A stretch of DNA of 27,839 nucleotides, taken from the NCBI GenBank assembly GCA_023859445.1, contig GCA_023859445.1_4337.1, one strand, 5' to 3'. Origin of the DNA: a phage. How positions within the stretch are numbered: the stretch's first letter is position 1; each line of letters begins with the position of its first letter. Below, in pieces: positions 1,894 through 25,958 of this stretch. The notes beneath the pieces are model-generated. The model made no database searches and had not been told where the DNA came from. It saw only the letters and a program-made list of their open reading frames with translations. Position numbers and translations under genes: made by a program.

Positions 1894-2072
1894 TTCACAT
1901 TCTCCTTAATCCATTCTTCAACTTTATTACGGTCAAATGTACCTGGTAAACGGCGACCCATAACCTTAATACAGCAGTCAGGGAATTTACCACTGCGCAA
2001 CCAGTTATTAATTGTCTGACGTGTTACCCCAATACGCTCTGCTACTTCATTCTGTGTCATGTAATGTTGCAT
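1890..2072 (-). CDS. Small HTH DNA-binding protein (AlpA/excisionase-like), 60 aa
   Basis: Start chosen at ATG complement 2070-2072 (SD AGGAG 8 nt upstream) rather than track start 2186. Helix-turn-helix-like segment TQNEVAERIGVTRQTINNWL. Confidence 0.55.
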   Translation of the reverse strand: MQHYMTQNEVAERIGVTRQTINNWLRSGKFPDCCIKVMGRRLPGTFDRNKVEEWIKENVK

Positions 2073-2103
2073 TTCTATATCTCCTGTTTGTTTGGTGAAA
2101 CCG

Positions 2104-2132
2104 AGTATAGGATAGCGGGAATGTAAAAGCAA
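2104..2132 (-). promoter_or_regulatory. Candidate sigma70 promoter for the minus-strand HTH gene (TTGCTT-17-TATACT)
   Basis: -35 complement of 2127-2132, -10 complement of 2104-2109, 17-nt spacer; about 30 nt upstream of the 2072 start. Confidence 0.4.
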
Positions 2133-2169
2133 CCAATCCCTGCAATATTTAATCTTTACAAAAAAGTTA

Positions 2170-2199
2170 TTGAAAGTTCTTGACACATGTTTGTATAAT
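2170..2199 (+). promoter_or_regulatory. Candidate sigma70 promoter (TTGAAA-18-TATAAT), divergent from 2104-2132
   Basis: TTGAAA 2170-2175, TATAAT 2194-2199, TG immediately upstream of the -10. Confidence 0.45.
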
Positions 2200-2226
2200 G
2201 GTTTTGGGACTTGTATATATTACGGA

Positions 2227-2258
2227 GTTGACGAACCCTCCCCGAGGGATTCGTCAAC
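2227..2258 (+). promoter_or_regulatory. Long imperfect inverted repeat/hairpin just downstream of the promoter
   Basis: GTTGACGAACCCTC (2227-2240) pairs with GAGGGATTCGTCAAC (2244-2258): 14 bp with one bulged A, 3-nt loop. Confidence 0.55.
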
Positions 2259-2491
2259 CCCTCCCATACGGCTGAGATGCTTGCCTTGGGGTTTAAGGAT
2301 AAGTGTATCTAAATCTCATTTAAAGAAGTAACCCACTGAAATATCTACTGTTTCTTAATGTGCCGTAGATTCGCAACCATAAAAATGTAACGATTATTGG
2401 GCAGGCTTAAGGCCCGCCCTTTAGTTACCAAGTAATAAGAATAAAGGCACAACCTTCCCTAAAGAATCACAACGGCAACGTAACTATTCTC

Positions 2492-2521
2492 TTGCACACC
2501 ACAACATAATAGGGTACTATT
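2492..2521 (+). promoter_or_regulatory. Conserved phage promoter, copy 1 (TTGCAC-N17-TACTAT; palindrome AATAGGGTACTATT)
   Basis: -35 2492-2497, -10 2515-2520, palindrome 2508-2521; 35 nt upstream of the 2555 gene. Confidence 0.5.
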
Positions 2522-3785: not shown

Positions 3786-3815
3786 TTGCACACTAAGATA
3801 GAATAGGCTACTATT
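3786..3815 (+). promoter_or_regulatory. Conserved phage promoter, copy 2 (TTGCAC-N17-TACTAT; palindrome AATAGGCTACTATT)
   Basis: -35 3786-3791, -10 3809-3814, palindrome 3802-3815; near-identical to copy 1 over about 35 bp including downstream AAACGAGA. Confidence 0.5.
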
Positions 3816-3963
3816 CATTTACACAAACGAGAGGAGAGACAGAAGGTGAAAGATTATAGCGAAGTGACTTTAGGTGAGTTGCAGGACGGGTACGAAGATA
3901 TGTGCTACCCGTTCATCTGCGACGGGGATTACAACGGCGGCTATAACGGAGTGAGCGAAGAAT

Positions 3964-4392
3964 ATGAATAACAAAAACGAAGTATTCGAGTACTTGGTAG
4001 CGGCAATGCACCTAACGCTGGACGAACGTAAGGCACACAAGCAACAGTGCGAAGACCTGGCGCATGAGGTGCTGTCACTTAAGAATCAGTTACGTGATGC
4101 GTCAGCGCAGATTAAGGAGCTACATATGGCGCTGGTCAAAGCTACGGGCGACGCGGAGGCGTACAAACTTATCCGCAAACAGGAGCAATCCGGTTGCCGT
4201 AAAGAGGATACCCAGGAATGCGAGCATGATTGGGTGCTAGATGAAAAAGGGGACTACTTCATTTGCGCTAAATGCGGTAAGCAAGAATCGGAATTGAGCG
4301 ATTGCCAACACGCTAATACCGTCGGTTTGCGCAAAGGCTTTGCGCCGGGTTTTACTAAAAAGTGTCTTGATTGCGGGGCTAAACTGAAATGA
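3964..4392 (+). CDS. Coiled-coil protein with C-terminal CxxC...CxxC zinc-ribbon-like motif (142 aa)
   Basis: ORF track; CAKCG and CLDCG pairs near the C-terminus. Confidence 0.55.
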   Translation: MNNKNEVFEYLVAAMHLTLDERKAHKQQCEDLAHEVLSLKNQLRDASAQIKELHMALVKATGDAEAYKLIRKQEQSGCRKEDTQECEHDWVLDEKGDYFICAKCGKQESELSDCQHANTVGLRKGFAPGFTKKCLDCGAKLK

Positions 4393-6097: not shown

Positions 6098-6118
6098 TCT
6101 ATTTTCTGCAATGACTAG

Positions 6119-6147
6119 TTGACTATTACCTACGACCCTATTATATT
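6119..6147 (+). promoter_or_regulatory. Candidate sigma70 promoter (TTGACT-17-TATATT)
   Basis: -35 6119-6124, -10 6142-6147; about 35 nt upstream of the 6181 gene. Confidence 0.45.
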
Positions 6148-6180: not shown

Positions 6181-6429
6181 ATGAGTAACGTACAGACAAT
6201 CGCAATAACCGAGGAACTTGAAGCCAAATGTATCGCATGGACTATGGGTAATGACCCGGTTGCTATGCGTAAATTTCCAATGAAAATCACAGACATCGAA
6301 GCATTCAAAGATGCACAACTGATGGCACGCATCGCCGTTAGTAACCTGAGCAATAGCATCCCTGCGGACGCGTTCTGGTTCGCTGCAATGCAGACCCTGA
6401 AGGCCGCTTATGCAGGAGAGAAGAAATGA
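6181..6429 (+). CDS. Hypothetical protein (82 aa)
   Basis: ORF track; SD GGAG upstream. Confidence 0.5.
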   Translation: MSNVQTIAITEELEAKCIAWTMGNDPVAMRKFPMKITDIEAFKDAQLMARIAVSNLSNSIPADAFWFAAMQTLKAAYAGEKK

Positions 6430-6623
6430 AAGTTAAAGCCGCTAAAATTCTCTGGTTAGCCGCCCTTGACTATGTGACAGAGGGTAAAGTGTATGATGTA
6501 TACAACCCGACAGCTACTGGTTTCGGTTATATAGACTCCGACGACGACTGCTGTATTTTCATAGACTTTGGTAACGATGAAGGTGATGGCTTCCACGGCG
6601 TTAAATGGGAGATTGTAGAATGA
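6426..6623 (+). CDS. Hypothetical acidic protein (65 aa)
   Basis: ORF track; ATGA overlap. Confidence 0.5.
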   Translation: MKVKAAKILWLAALDYVTEGKVYDVYNPTATGFGYIDSDDDCCIFIDFGNDEGDGFHGVKWEIVE

Positions 6624-6778
6624 GCGAACAAGGTCAAGTAAGCCAACCACTACGGGTAGGCCGTAAAGTCAGCCACACCCCGTTCCCGACACGCGAGGAA
6701 CTGATGAAACGTAACAGTTTCCCTGGGCCGGACAAGAACAAGTATCTCAATCGCATGTGGGGAGAGCGTAAAGAATGA
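6620..6778 (+). CDS. Hypothetical small protein (52 aa)
   Basis: ATG 6620 overlapping upstream stop (ATGA); codons counted to TGA 6776-6778; below track cutoff. Confidence 0.4.
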   Translation: MSEQGQVSQPLRVGRKVSHTPFPTREELMKRNSFPGPDKNKYLNRMWGERKE

Positions 6779-6948
6779 CTGACCGCGAATACGAGAAGGC
6801 ATGCGTAGAGTCGGCGCTAGGTATGTACGCTATTGAAGAGTGCGACAAGACGATTGCCGAATTAGAAAAGGCGTTATCTGTGGTACAGGAGCATCGTCGT
6901 GAATTGATTAACCGCTTCAACCTGAACAAAGGTGACACCAATGCCTAA
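6775..6948 (+). CDS. Hypothetical small protein (57 aa)
   Basis: ATG 6775 overlapping upstream stop (ATGA); codons counted to TAA 6946-6948. Confidence 0.4.
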   Translation: MTDREYEKACVESALGMYAIEECDKTIAELEKALSVVQEHRRELINRFNLNKGDTNA

Positions 6949-7488: not shown

Positions 7489-7658
7489 TGTTCAGCGACA
7501 TCAACGCGGCAATCGAAGAAGCAATCTGGCGTCGCTACAACGGCGAGCAGCAGCGGCACTTCTGCCTGGTACAACGCGGTAACATGATTGCTGTGGTACA
7601 GGACCGTGATAATAAATATCCGAATGCGATGTGGACAACGAGGAATTTTTTAGGATGA
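7488..7658 (+). CDS. Hypothetical small protein (56 aa)
   Basis: ATG 7488 (TAATG overlap); codons counted to TGA 7656-7658. Confidence 0.4.
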   Translation: MFSDINAAIEEAIWRRYNGEQQRHFCLVQRGNMIAVVQDRDNKYPNAMWTTRNFLG

Positions 7659-7891
7659 TTACCAGCATTCCGAACCTGATTAAAGAATTTGGCACGATGG
7701 CCGAGACATGCCGACAAACCGGCATCAACGAAATGACGATTGCGAAGTACAGCAAAGACGTCGATTGCGAGCGCCACGTAATTTATAACAATCGTCTGAT
7801 GACGCACGTTAAGACAAGCCCGGTGTTATTCACGCGCCGGGGTATTACTAAAACAGAGCAACGTATTGCTAAAGAGGGGAGTGGGGAATGA
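7655..7891 (+). CDS. Small putative DNA-binding protein (78 aa)
   Basis: ATG 7655 in frame with track ORF 7631-7891, ATGA overlap; helix-turn-helix-like segment CRQTGINEMTIAKYSKD. Confidence 0.45.
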   Translation: MITSIPNLIKEFGTMAETCRQTGINEMTIAKYSKDVDCERHVIYNNRLMTHVKTSPVLFTRRGITKTEQRIAKEGSGE

Positions 7892-11576: not shown

Positions 11577-11597
11577 AGCCCCGAAAGGGGCTTTCTT
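11577..11597 (+). terminator. Weak terminator-like hairpin after portal
   Basis: Stem AGCCCC/GGGGCT, GAAA loop, then TTCTTAT; overlaps start region of next gene so probably leaky. Confidence 0.35.
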
Positions 11598-11602
11598 ATA
11601 GT

Positions 11603-12679
11603 ATGCTATTAACTTTAGCGCCACAGGGTTTATCTATGAGCTTACTTACATCACTAATCAGCCACCAGATATGGCTGCAACGCACCGCATCCGGTGAGGT
11701 GAAAGACCTCGCGCCGTTCATTAAGGAGATGCGGGACGAAATCAAACGGCAGGTGCTGCTATTCGGCGACGACGGTCGCAGCACTGCGCGACTGAATAAA
11801 CTGTTACGTGACCTTGAAGAAGTACTGACAGGACTTACTGGTGACTGGCAAACAAAGCTGGCAGAAGACCTCAAGGAACTGGCGGTGTATGAAGCTGAGT
11901 GGAACGTAAAGACCCTGACCGCCAACGTAGATGCGGAATTTGTTACGCCCACCGCCGAACAGGTGTGGGCCGCTGCTGAGTTTCAGCCATTATCATTGAG
12001 TGGCAAGCCAGTTGATTTCACTAAACTGATGTCAGGTTGGGGTGAAACGGAAGTAGCACGTCTTGTAACCGGCGTTAAGATGGGCTTTGTACAAGGTCAA
12101 ACAACACGGCAGATTGTTAAGAATGTAGTAGGCGCCGGTGGGCTGGCTGACATCTCTGAGCGTAACGCCGCTACCGTCATCCGCACCGCGCTGTCTCACG
12201 TGTCCAACGAAGCCCGTAACGAGACGTACCGCCAGAACGACGACATCATAGAGAAGTACGAGTGGGTGTCAACGCTTGACAGCCGCACCAGTACGATTTG
12301 CAGGGTCAGAGACGGGATGACGTGGGAAATTGGTAAGGGGCCGATGCCCCCTGCCCATCCGAACTGCCGGTCGTGCACGGCTCCGGTAATCAGTTCCGAG
12401 TTCGACTTCCTCGATAAAGGCGCAAAACGCGCGGCTAAAGGCGCGGAAGGTGGCACTCAGGTAAGCGTAGACACCACTTACTACGAGTTCCTTAAACAAC
12501 AACCGGCGTGGTTTCAGGACCAGGCGCTCGGCCCGGTGCGAGGTAAGATTTTCCGTAACAGCGGTATATCGCCGGAAGAGTTTCGCGTAATATCTGTAGA
12601 TGGTTTCGGGAATCCGCTCACGCTTAAGCAGATGGCGGAACTCGATAAACGTGTTGCTGATTATCTGAAAGGGGAATAA
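11603..12679 (+). CDS. Head morphogenesis protein (SPP1 gp7 / Mu F-like minor head protein)
   Basis: ORF track; motif region DSRTSTICRVRDGMTWEIGKGPMPPAHPNCRSC characteristic of this family (from memory); alternative start ATG 11636. Confidence 0.8.
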   Translation: MLLTLAPQGLSMSLLTSLISHQIWLQRTASGEVKDLAPFIKEMRDEIKRQVLLFGDDGRSTARLNKLLRDLEEVLTGLTGDWQTKLAEDLKELAVYEAEWNVKTLTANVDAEFVTPTAEQVWAAAEFQPLSLSGKPVDFTKLMSGWGETEVARLVTGVKMGFVQGQTTRQIVKNVVGAGGLADISERNAATVIRTALSHVSNEARNETYRQNDDIIEKYEWVSTLDSRTSTICRVRDGMTWEIGKGPMPPAHPNCRSCTAPVISSEFDFLDKGAKRAAKGAEGGTQVSVDTTYYEFLKQQPAWFQDQALGPVRGKIFRNSGISPEEFRVISVDGFGNPLTLKQMAELDKRVADYLKGE

Positions 12680-13298: not shown

Positions 13299-13328
13299 AA
13301 TAGTACCCTATTATGTTGGTGTCTGCAA
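13299..13328 (-). promoter_or_regulatory. Conserved phage promoter, copy 3 (TTGCAG-N17-TACTAT, minus strand)
   Basis: -35 complement of 13323-13328, -10 complement of 13300-13305; palindrome AATAGTACCCTATT at 13299-13312. Confidence 0.5.
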
Positions 13329-13342
13329 ACTATTTGTTTACG

Positions 13343-13394
13343 TATTCCAGTTATTCCACTCAATTGTAAATGTTGGAATAAGCTATTCGAATAG
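13343..13394. promoter_or_regulatory. Operator-like array of TATTCCA/TGGAATA half-sites plus 12-bp palindrome CTATTCGAATAG
   Basis: TATTCCA 13343-13349 and 13352-13358, TGGAATA 13374-13380 (8-bp IR with 15-nt spacer), palindrome 13383-13394; lies between divergent promoters. Confidence 0.4.
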
Positions 13395-13423
13395 TTGACT
13401 TTTCACCAAAAATGTGCTAAGCT
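13395..13423 (+). promoter_or_regulatory. Candidate sigma70 promoter with extended -10 (TTGACT-17-TGcTAAGCT)
   Basis: -35 13395-13400, TG 13415-13416, -10 TAAGCT 13418-13423. Confidence 0.45.
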
Positions 13424-22217: not shown

Positions 22218-22247
22218 AATAGTACCCTATTATATTTGGGTGCGCAA
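22218..22247 (-). promoter_or_regulatory. Conserved phage promoter, copy 4 (TTGCGC-N17-TACTAT, minus strand)
   Basis: -35 complement of 22242-22247, -10 complement of 22219-22224, palindrome AATAGTACCCTATT 22218-22231; drives the minus-strand accessory operon. Confidence 0.5.
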
Positions 22248-25129: not shown

Positions 25130-25151
25130 AGGCCCTCAGGGCCTTTATTTT
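25130..25151. terminator. Bidirectional intrinsic terminator after tape measure gene
   Basis: Stem AGGCCC/GGGCCT, short loop, then TTATTTT; stop of the minus-strand gene (25145) lies within it. Confidence 0.7.
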
Positions 25152-25903
25152 CTCCAGCCTCTGGGTTTATGCCCCTCGTTACACAATTTGGTAAACTCCG
25201 CGATGATTGCGGTATCGGCTACCATCCACTCACTTGCTCCGTCAAAGTTGCTTAGCTCCGCTGATACGTGTGCGCGGTGGAAATATCGCTCCAACATACG
25301 GCAACGAGCACCATTAGCGTCTTGGTATACGCTAAGCACATGGAACTCGAATGGGGTGGCACGCTCTAGCTGGGCAAGGCGTTGCTTTAACTTGTTAGTG
25401 ATACCTATTTTGAGATATTTACCACATGCGGAAAGAAGCCCGTAAATATATCCCGGTTTGTTAGAATTGTAGCCGTGCTTGGCACATGAGGGGCATCCAT
25501 GCCCATGCACTAAAATGTTATTAACTCCCGTGACAAACACCCCGTGGTCCTTACAGACCCGTATCGCTTTTGAATTTTTGTTAAGGTACGCCCCGCCCTC
25601 AAAACCCACGAACGTATATCGAACATCCGCTGATTTTATTTGCTCAATAACCGCATTTGTATTCTTGCGGTACGCAACAGACGCGGCCTCCCTGCTGCAT
25701 TTCATGCACCCGTGACCTCCGGCGATGCTACGGGCTATAGCCGCAAATTCGCCGTGTTCTGGGCAAGTAATTCTAATCTTACTGGTCGAGTTGATATACT
25801 CGCTACCATCATAACTTGGGGATATTGTGTACTTCCCGCCGTGTTTCTTTAAATCTAACTCGACCATTTTCTTCCGTTCTTCCCAACCAATTTTAGCGCT
25901 CAT
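25145..25903 (-). CDS. Homing-endonuclease-like protein (GIY-YIG / T5orf172-MUG113-like C-terminal domain with two N-terminal Cys/His zinc-ribbon repeats), 252 aa
   Basis: ORF track; repeats CPEHGEF...GHGCMKC and CKDHGVF...GHGCPSC; C-terminal GYIYGLL...KIGIT...R pattern resembles GIY-YIG-type domains (from memory); opposite strand inside the tail module. Confidence 0.55.
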   Translation of the reverse strand: MSAKIGWEERKKMVELDLKKHGGKYTISPSYDGSEYINSTSKIRITCPEHGEFAAIARSIAGGHGCMKCSREAASVAYRKNTNAVIEQIKSADVRYTFVGFEGGAYLNKNSKAIRVCKDHGVFVTGVNNILVHGHGCPSCAKHGYNSNKPGYIYGLLSACGKYLKIGITNKLKQRLAQLERATPFEFHVLSVYQDANGARCRMLERYFHRAHVSAELSNFDGASEWMVADTAIIAEFTKLCNEGHKPRGWRK

Positions 25904-25923: not shown

Positions 25924-25958
25924 AATAGCATACTATTCAACCATATGGTATCTGTCAA
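25924..25958 (-). promoter_or_regulatory. Promoter for the endonuclease-like gene (TTGACA-17-TAGTAT) carrying the palindrome AATAGCATACTATT
   Basis: -35 complement of 25953-25958, -10 complement of 25930-25935; palindrome 25924-25937 (copy 5 of the family). Confidence 0.5.

Follow-up and report, generated by a model that had tools for sequence, protein, structure and literature searches.

The 434 Cro protein binds 14-bp dyad operators. In the OR and OL regions of phage 434, and also in lambda and P22, Cro/cI operators overlap the -35 and -10 elements of sigma-70 promoters. They are arranged in two clusters of three in the divergent control region of the regulator gene itself, and the half-site of 434 is ACAA. 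In other phages one short site is found at many promoters or operons and is served by one controlling protein, i.e., the C1 operators of P1, the conserved inverted repeats of phiC31 and the stoperators of L5. These systems maintain lysogeny, and several of them use asymmetric sites. Factor-binding elements between the -35 and the -10 of sigma-70 promoters are also known for lambda Q and AlpA; these elements are asymmetric, and they function only with a -10-like pause site and with a protein that has a length of about 150 aa or more and extends into the RNA exit channel. On the side of the host, the box of the MarR-family regulators SlyA/RovA, TTAGCAAGCTAA, has the palindromic core TAG-N4-CTA.

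Two reports concern phages of the Guernseyvirinae. With PHIRE, seven sites of the form tgAATAGTa-ccTATTat-T were found in the Kagunavirus fBC-Eco01 and assigned to "the phage-encoded RNA polymerase" (PMC9825357), and TAATAGTACCCTATTATGTT was described as a conserved phage-specific regulatory element of the Jerseyvirus SGP-C (PMC8790156). Both are the motif that is analyzed here, and neither paper analyzes its position, its operator character, its binder or its mechanism. The motif is already known as a descriptive repeat; what is new are its operator-like anatomy, its independence of position, its replacement between lineages and a concrete candidate for the regulator.

The DNA under study, called the window, is a stretch of 27,839 nt. 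Megablast placed it in the genus Kagunavirus (Guernseyvirinae, K1G/K1H-like siphophages of E. coli K1); the subfamily was reportedly defined by Anany et al. in 2015. The nearest record was Escherichia phage MirsaeidiM_Esher4 (PQ579973). Phage K1H is 94-97% identical to the window across much of the structural region, and the gene layout was read by mapping the window onto the annotated K1H genome (Table 1). An Rfam scan of the window gave no hits.

Table 1. Genes, putative promoters and palindromes of the window. Assignments of promoters to genes are predictions.
Feature	Position	Strand	Elements and remarks	Predicted target
Part of the helicase-primase gene and small HTH gene	up to 2072	minus		
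60-aa HTH_17 protein (excisionase/MerR-like winged-helix)	1890-2072	minus	First gene of the leftward helicase-primase operon	
Promoter of the HTH_17 gene	~2107-2135	minus	TTGCTT-N17-TATACT, no full palindrome	HTH_17 gene
Divergent control region	2072-2492			
About 20 small genes, then holins and endolysin		rightward		
Terminase, portal, head and tail genes	after holins and endolysin			
Three accessory units inside the structural cluster		reverse		
Class A promoter, copy 1	2492-2521	plus	-35 TTGCAC 2492-2497, -10 TACTAT 2515-2520	Rightward small-gene operon starting at 2546/2556 (ORF 2546/2556-2746)
Palindrome of copy 1	2508-2521	plus	AATAGGGTACTATT	
Class A promoter, copy 2	3786-3815	plus	-35 TTGCAC 3786-3791, -10 TACTAT 3809-3814	ORFs from 3846 (first ORF 3846-3971, plus) toward the holin and endolysin genes
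Palindrome of copy 2	3802-3815	plus	AATAGGCTACTATT	
Class A promoter, copy 3	13299-13328	minus	-35 TTGCAG 13328-13323, -10 TACTAT 13305-13300	33-aa hydrophobic ORF 13273-13172 (minus)
Palindrome of copy 3	13312-13299	minus		
Class A promoter, copy 4	22218-22247	minus	-35 TTGCGC 22247-22242, -10 TACTAT 22224-22219	Reverse-strand accessory operon, 22176 down to 19639 (108-aa ORF 22176-21850, exonuclease, polynucleotide kinase, ATP-binding protein)
Palindrome of copy 4	22231-22218	minus		
Promoter, copy 5	25924-25958	minus	-35 TTGACA 25958-25953, -10 TAGTAT 25935-25930	GIY-YIG/T5orf172 endonuclease gene 25903-25145 (minus)
Palindrome of copy 5	25937-25924	minus	AATAGTATGCTATT, about -14 to -1	
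One-mismatch palindrome	6114-6127	plus	ACTAGTTGACTATT, over the -35 of TTGACT-N17-TATATT (6119-6147)	6114-6147 (plus): probable promoter of the operon leading into the terminase genes
One-mismatch palindrome	11597-11610	plus	TATAGTATGCTATT, right after the portal-gene terminator, without a -35	
One-mismatch palindrome	13390-13403	plus	AATAGTTGACTTTT, over the -35 of TTGACT-N17-TAAGCT (13390-13423)	
Three small ORFs (one DUF2737)	6181-6948			

The original prediction had described five near-identical promoters with a palindrome AATAG-N4-CTATT (AATAGNNNNCTATT) across the -10. All five palindromes are indeed present at the predicted coordinates and on the predicted strands, and the placement upstream of genes was also correct, as each copy is followed on its own strand by a ribosome binding site and a start codon. 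The five exact matches in the window compare with 0.00 expected from 100 dinucleotide-preserving shuffles. When one mismatch was allowed, nine matches were found versus 0.60 expected, and no shuffle had more than three. The sequence TTGC(A/G)(C/G)-N17-TACTAT, which had been ascribed to the whole family, holds for copies 1 to 4, in which exactly 17 nt follow the -35 hexamer, then TACTAT, and then a T. It does not hold for copy 5, which reads TTGACA-N17-TAGTAT, with a distance from the -35 to the palindrome that is 5 bp longer. In the alignment, ATAATAGGGTACTATT is common to copies 1, 3 and 4, and copy 2 has AGAATAGGCTACTATT. Orthologs of copy 1 are present in K1H, ZCEC5 and PQ579973. In the ortholog of copy 5 in phage fFiEco02, GAATAGCATGCTACTA was kept, and the remaining spacer is diverged or unrelated.

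All five copies have the form TTGnnn-N17-TAnnnT, i.e., sigma-70-type hexamers at a distance of 17 bp. It could not be established that the family consists of strong sigma-70 promoters: the hexamers of copies 1 to 4, called class A below, match the sigma-70 consensus at three of six and four of six positions (7/12), and these copies are missing from the list of a generic promoter and terminator scan, which was itself uninformative, because promoter-like sites were no commoner than in shuffled sequence. Position, orientation and conservation suggest that the class A copies are nevertheless promoters.

Beyond the five copies, the window contains three conserved palindromes with one mismatch. The site at 6114 directly follows a terminator, and it is conserved in K1H, ZCEC5 and PQ579973 as well as in the Jerseyvirus Ent1 (AATAGTTGACTAGT). 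The site at 13390 points away from copy 3 and toward the genes for spanin, scaffold and capsid, and its putative promoter has a TG at the extended -10 position. The third site, at 11597, has ATAGTATGCTATTAA in common with copy 5.

The position of the palindrome was analyzed in four complete genomes, three from Kagunavirus and one from Jerseyvirus, and then in 188 unique contexts from about 50 Kagunavirus and Jerseyvirus loci. Two classes predominate. In class A, TTGCAC-N17-TACTAT, the palindrome extends from -19 to -6 (68 of the 188 contexts). In class B, TTGAC(A/G)-N4-AATAGnnnnCTAT-TATAGT/TATATT, it lies in the spacer from -25 to -12 (104 of the 188 contexts); this class is found at replication-gene promoters outside the window, and in relatives its hexamers match the sigma-70 consensus at 11 of 12 positions. 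A third arrangement is copy 5, with the palindrome from -14 to -1, and a fourth is a single site of the Jerseyvirus Ent1, TTGCAT-N17-TATTAT, with the palindrome from -22 to -9. Four contexts had been placed at -22 by the script, but three of these are class A copies for which it had taken the wrong strand. Promoter-like contexts make up about 94% of the unique perfect sites, and the positions, including near-copies over the -35, overlap the core promoter from about -40 to -1. The flanks of the palindrome are asymmetric (GTG-AATAG...CTATT-AT), and both orientations relative to transcription occur. The geometry is 5-4-5, with half-site centers 9 bp apart. Judged by its sequence, the element thus looks like an operator of the Cro/cI type, i.e., a dyad of about 14 bp with half-sites about one helical turn apart, a free center and an overlap with the core promoter.

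Conservation was also analyzed in samples that had not been collected via the motif. For class B, loci were fetched via the DUF2815 protein, the gene of which follows a class B promoter, and 36 unique upstream sequences were obtained. The entropy was about zero at the -35, at both arms (-25 to -21 and -16 to -12) and at the -10. High values were obtained for the N4, for the 4 nt that separate the palindrome from the -35, and for the sequence preceding the -35. At least seven variants of the N4 were present among near-identical phages. The sigma-70 polymerase makes no base-specific contacts in the spacer at these positions, and, therefore, the conservation of the class B arms cannot be explained by RNA polymerase. 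For class A, the search was anchored only on TTG-N20-TACTAT, and AATAG was found at -19 to -15 in 53 of 60 unique promoters. In class A, the identity of the copies is not limited to the palindrome but extends to other spacer bases (ACC.AA.AT) and to a leader/RBS segment, AAACGAGAGGAG, and, therefore, a part of it may reflect the duplication of a promoter cassette.

Relatives with the exact palindrome have four to seven copies per genome. The looser form AATA-N6-TATT is enriched in the window (6 observed versus 0.42 expected), in K1H (9 versus 0.44), in the Jerseyvirus Ent1 (5 versus 0.55) and in the more distant locus L094 (7 versus 0.17, all seven within 20 kb); other lineages have zero to two per locus. 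It is absent from Serratia phage Eta, which shares only the structural genes. In distant relatives with a DUF2815 protein of 45-51% identity, the -35, the -10 and even a hairpin in the 5'-UTR of the orthologous promoter were kept, and the content of the spacer differs. The group of L094, L106 and L108 has a relaxed TAATAn-N4-nTATTA at this promoter, and L090 and L095 have TTAGC-N2-GCTAA, which is present at three promoters each. These variant palindromes recur at several promoters within their own genome. No clear palindrome was found at the orthologous promoter of other lineages, among them Salmonella phage SaI_NFG_5577, the genome of which is complete. In the complete genome of a Salmonella phage that represents another lineage of the group, L006, there is no site of the AATAG-N4-CTATT type. 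Some relatives have repeats of GGTGTAACAGG next to a palindrome; the window has none. Because the palindromes differ by lineage, and because phage Eta with only the structural genes in common has none, the element travels with the early/replication regulatory system and changes by lineage, as would be expected for an operator and its own regulator.

Taken together, the same arms are found at four positions relative to the -10, they are conserved in a sample independent of the motif, and the palindromes were replaced in distant relatives. All three findings speak for the palindrome being a module of its own, distinct from the -35 and the -10. The earlier proposal of a shared regulator-binding site, made because of the dyad and the identity beyond the hexamers, is supported by the shifting position, by the invariant arms around a free N4, by the 53 of 60 class A promoters and by the different palindromes of other lineages.

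The leading candidate for the binder is a Cro-like protein, which is considered most likely and is weighted somewhat above the HTH_17 protein described below. In K1H it is gp41, a 71-aa Pfam HTH_3 protein that is encoded beside the helicase-primase gene; this position is outside the window, about 1 kb beyond its left edge. Its best match in the PDB is Cro of phage 434, which also has 71 aa (E = 1.9e-7), and a 45%-identical Cro of a lambdoid Klebsiella phage adjoins a 434-type ACAAACAAGTTTGT. The cro-like gene of K1H is flanked by a perfect class B site and a class A-like site with one mismatch, which would be sites in the divergent control region of the putative regulator gene, as in 434. The closest relative of the window has the gene, and so does every lineage, including the L094 group and all others with AATA-type palindromes. 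Lineages with other palindromes also have other Cro-like recognition helices, but across seven lineages no clean one-to-one pattern of helix and palindrome type was obtained. The putative helix reads SQGAINQ in Kagunavirus and SQSLITH in Jerseyvirus, and the two proteins are 51% identical, although the arms are identical. The promoter of the cro-like gene of Jerseyvirus has ATTAC instead of the left arm, and in the lineages G5-G7 the Cro-like protein is present, but the palindrome is not clearly enriched.

The likeness to the 434 system comprises a 14-bp dyad site overlapping a sigma-70 -35/-10, a homologous candidate binder of the same size and, possibly, sites in the control region of its gene. 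The differences are that the half-site is AATAG, that 8-10 single sites are dispersed over a virulent genome, and that the annotation contains neither a cI nor an integrase nor a lysogeny module; the role as an operator is predicted from sequence for the phages studied here. In contrast to the systems of P1, phiC31 and L5, symmetric sites are found here in a virulent phage, and all of them are located inside the core promoter.

The main alternative candidate, and a plausible one, is the 60-aa HTH_17 protein. It had been proposed in the original prediction together with the ORF at 7655-7891, the resemblance of which to NinH is weak and does not reach the Pfam cut-off. HTH_17 is restricted to Kagunavirus and Jerseyvirus (443 records, all at least 60% identical), with 80% identity between the two genera. 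Homologs outside this clade were searched for, and none were found; the protein was also not found in about 30 kb, including the early region, of the 47.6-kb L094 contig. A fold search with a structure model yielded Xis, RacA, RdfS, BldC and MerR domains, all as weak matches. Xis, RdfS and BldC mostly bind direct repeats, and RacA and MerR domains bind palindromes. Presence/absence profiles of all K1H ORFs were compared between lineages that have the palindrome and lineages that lack it. The distribution of HTH_17 follows only that of the strict AATAG form, which is confounded with the clade, and three small ORFs track the loose AATA-N6-TATT form, for which there is a single informative negative genome. 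An RNA-seq study of a Kagunavirus has a low resolution, without resolving transcription starts (PMC12645636). Judged from the gene order, the HTH_17 gene is probably the one annotated gene among the four early genes of that study, and the cro-like gene is probably middle, a pattern that would also fit an early activator.

The reading that is favored here, with moderate confidence, is that host sigma-70 promoters carry an embedded operator of a dimeric, probably phage-encoded and probably repressing regulator, for which the Cro-like protein is the most likely candidate. Host sigma-70 RNA polymerase would read the promoters of the virulent Kagunavirus, each of which would carry the 14-bp operator. 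The dimeric, probably phage-encoded protein would bind with one half-site per subunit, and binding within the core promoter, from about -40 to -1, would most likely block RNA polymerase. As a result, about 8-10 early/middle and accessory promoters would be turned down together. Repression is proposed because the sites overlap the core promoter at variable positions, including those of the near-consensus class B, and activators normally need a fixed position.

The shared class A spacer bases and leader/RBS segments would also be expected if the sites were merely related sigma-70 promoters, the extra identity of which stems from cassette duplication, gene conversion or a spacer preference of the polymerase, with no separate factor involved. 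In addition, the right arm of class A overlaps the -10, and, thus, the polymerase explains a part of its conservation. However, the same 5 + 5 bp are kept wholly inside the spacer in class B and downstream of the -10 in copy 5, the arms are invariant whereas the N4 and adjacent spacer bases vary among close relatives, the left arm is present in 53 of the 60 hexamer-anchored promoters, and other lineages have different palindromes at the same promoter, which together make this explanation improbable. Like the PeSL cassettes of T4-type phages, the conserved cassettes might also serve mainly as joints for recombination, by which gene modules are shuffled. Several unrelated sequence families are found upstream of the DUF2815 promoter, with promoter and leader constant, and, thus, the promoter marks a mosaic boundary, and copies 3, 4 and 5 head self-contained accessory units on the reverse strand. 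Yet homology-driven exchange would keep whole blocks and not two 5-bp arms with a free N4, and such a boundary is expected at any conserved element beside variable genes; this possibility is very unlikely. The lowest probability, close to negligible, is given to the reading that the sites are promoters of an RNA polymerase or sigma factor of the phage; the seven PHIRE sites of fBC-Eco01 had been attributed to a phage RNA polymerase (PMC9825357). In the annotations of K1H, Ent1, ZCEC5 and PQ579973 there is no gene for an RNA polymerase or sigma factor, every site has sigma-70-type hexamers at 17 bp, and both the two orientations and the several positions relative to the downstream gene are unlike the promoters of a single-subunit polymerase. 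A host transcription factor, by which the phage promoters would sense the state of the host, also has a low probability. The identical arms in phages of E. coli and Salmonella with only 51%-identical Cro-like proteins fit such a factor, and the L090/L095 spacer sequence TTAGC-N2-GCTAA matches the published SlyA consensus, the core of which is shared with the window motif. The window motif itself was rejected as a SlyA site, because it reads ATA-N6-TAT and not the minimal TTA-N6-TAA; it has an A instead of a T before the TAG, and in addition a free N4. A SlyA site fits the related lineage L090/L095. Also, the Salmonella phage L006 has no such site in its complete genome, and we know of no E. 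coli factor with the consensus AATAG-N4-CTATT, which was counted against a host factor.

More weight, although it is still unlikely, is given to the early HTH_17 protein as a binder that acts positively, as a middle-promoter switch or by Q/AlpA-like loading onto the polymerase. HTH_17 is restricted to the genera that have the strict AATAG palindrome and is well conserved between them, its own promoter has no palindrome, among the early genes of the RNA-seq study it is probably the only one with an annotation, the class A hexamers are weak, and Q/AlpA elements are also located between the -35 and the -10 (PMC9371919). However, sites whose position varies between about -40 and -1 are typical of repressors and not of position-dependent activators, and the class B promoters are already near the consensus (11/12). 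In L094 AATA-type palindromes are present, but HTH_17 was not found in the 30 kb, including the early region, and the nearest folds mostly bind direct repeats, though RacA and MerR bind palindromes. A MerR-type spacer operator does not fit, because the spacers have 17 bp and not the 19-20 bp of MerR-type activation, and because HTH_17 has 60 aa versus the coiled-coil MerR dimer with about 130 aa. Loading of a Q/AlpA antiterminator was rejected: the sole candidate has 60 aa and an Xis/MerR-like fold, without the N-terminal segment of the eight-helix AlpA that forms a ring at the RNA exit channel. In the leaders, which were inspected by eye only, no -10-like pause element was seen. With a similarly low probability as a host factor, a small early protein of the phage, i.e., HTH_17 or the product of one of the co-occurring small ORFs, might dock at the palindrome and have a positive effect from its position within the core promoter (-25 to -6). 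In that case the docking protein would re-program the host sigma-70 polymerase at a specific group of promoters, a middle-gene activation unlike those of T4 MotA/AsiA, Mu Mor/C, MerR and lambda Q.

The Guernseyvirinae, with Jerseyvirus and Kagunavirus, are among the phages that are most often isolated for therapy and biocontrol of Salmonella and E. coli. If one small regulator controls 8-10 promoters, as in the favored reading of an embedded 14-bp operator, this would explain how early, replication and accessory genes are coordinated in a virulent phage without an RNA polymerase of its own. It would correct the literature, in which the motif was ascribed to a polymerase of the phage, and it would offer a compact, transferable pair of promoter and operator for the engineering of these phages. 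Furthermore, it would mean that a Cro-type switch has been kept and has spread genome-wide in a phage without a lysogeny module.

The HTH_17 gene, which encodes a 60-aa candidate binder of the palindrome AATAG-N4-CTATT proposed as an operator, has a promoter in which the full palindrome is absent and only a half-site-like TATAGGATA is found. The probable early operon of this gene would thus lie outside the palindrome regulon. On the opposite strand, a near-consensus promoter is followed by two hairpins; this stretch (2170-2430, +) might encode a small non-coding RNA some 200 nt in length, and none of the Rfam families matched it.

Coordinates of the features in the window and in related phages
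Feature	Position	Strand	Context
Promoter TTGCTT-N17-TATACT	2107-2135	-	HTH_17 gene
Near-consensus promoter TTGAAA-N18-TATAAT	2170-2199	+	divergent early control region
Hairpin, ~13-bp stem	roughly 2228-2260	+	downstream of 2170-2199 promoter
Terminator-like hairpin	roughly 2400-2425	+	downstream of 2170-2199 promoter
Small ORF, phrog_2180	6181-6429	+	just 3' of 6119 promoter
Small ORF, DUF2737/phrog_4684	6605-6778	+	just 3' of 6119 promoter
Small ORF, phrog_1402	6775-6948	+	just 3' of 6119 promoter
TATAGTATGCTATT	11597-11610	+	adjoins portal-gene terminator (3' side); overlaps first ATG of head-morphogenesis ORF
Outward-turned arms CTATT-CG-AATAG	13380-13403	+	immediately 5' of -35, promoter facing spanin and capsid genes
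GIY-YIG/T5orf172 endonuclease with CapR-like domain	25145-25903	-	between tape-measure gene and next tail gene
DUF2815 5'-UTR hairpin, example	K1H 29520-29575	-	outside window
TTAGC-N2-GCTAA	L090 762, 2702, 9928
TTAGC-N2-GCTAA	L095 346, 2236, 9928

The endonuclease gene has the palindrome-bearing copy 5 as its promoter. It is common to only three phage records, with 87% identity, and is absent from the annotated relative K1H as well as from the closest relative of the window. By appearance it would be a mobile gene for a homing endonuclease, bringing its own promoter. Copy 5 has 15 nt in common with the TATAGTATGCTATT site, at which a -35 is absent; the latter may be a remnant, or else a regulator site to which no promoter belongs. 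The divergent region 13299-13423 contains three arm pairs, including palindrome copy 3. At several Kagunavirus and Jerseyvirus loci outside the window, tandem GGTGTAACAGGT repeats directly adjoin a CAATAGGTTACTATTTG palindrome for which no -35 can be recognised, and the combination may represent a region resembling iterons or an origin.

The three small ORFs are present in every lineage with the looser palindrome AATA-N6-TATT, and all of them are absent from a complete genome devoid of it. This co-occurrence is a weak lead, because there is only one informative negative genome.

The 5'-UTR hairpin CACTGGCCGGGCAG..CCCGGAGTAAAC, which precedes the DUF2815 gene by about 20-60 nt, was kept in all relatives (L008-L103). 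In the most distant ones it is replaced by TACCGGCTCGGCGGGTTCCGAGAGTTCA, which points to compensatory changes and to a structured RNA regulatory element in front of the DUF2815 and DNA polymerase genes.

In the more distant lineage L090/L095, promoter spacers are occupied by TTAGC-N2-GCTAA, which equals the published SlyA consensus TTAGCAAGCTAA, and these phages may therefore use the host SlyA/RovA or mimic its site.
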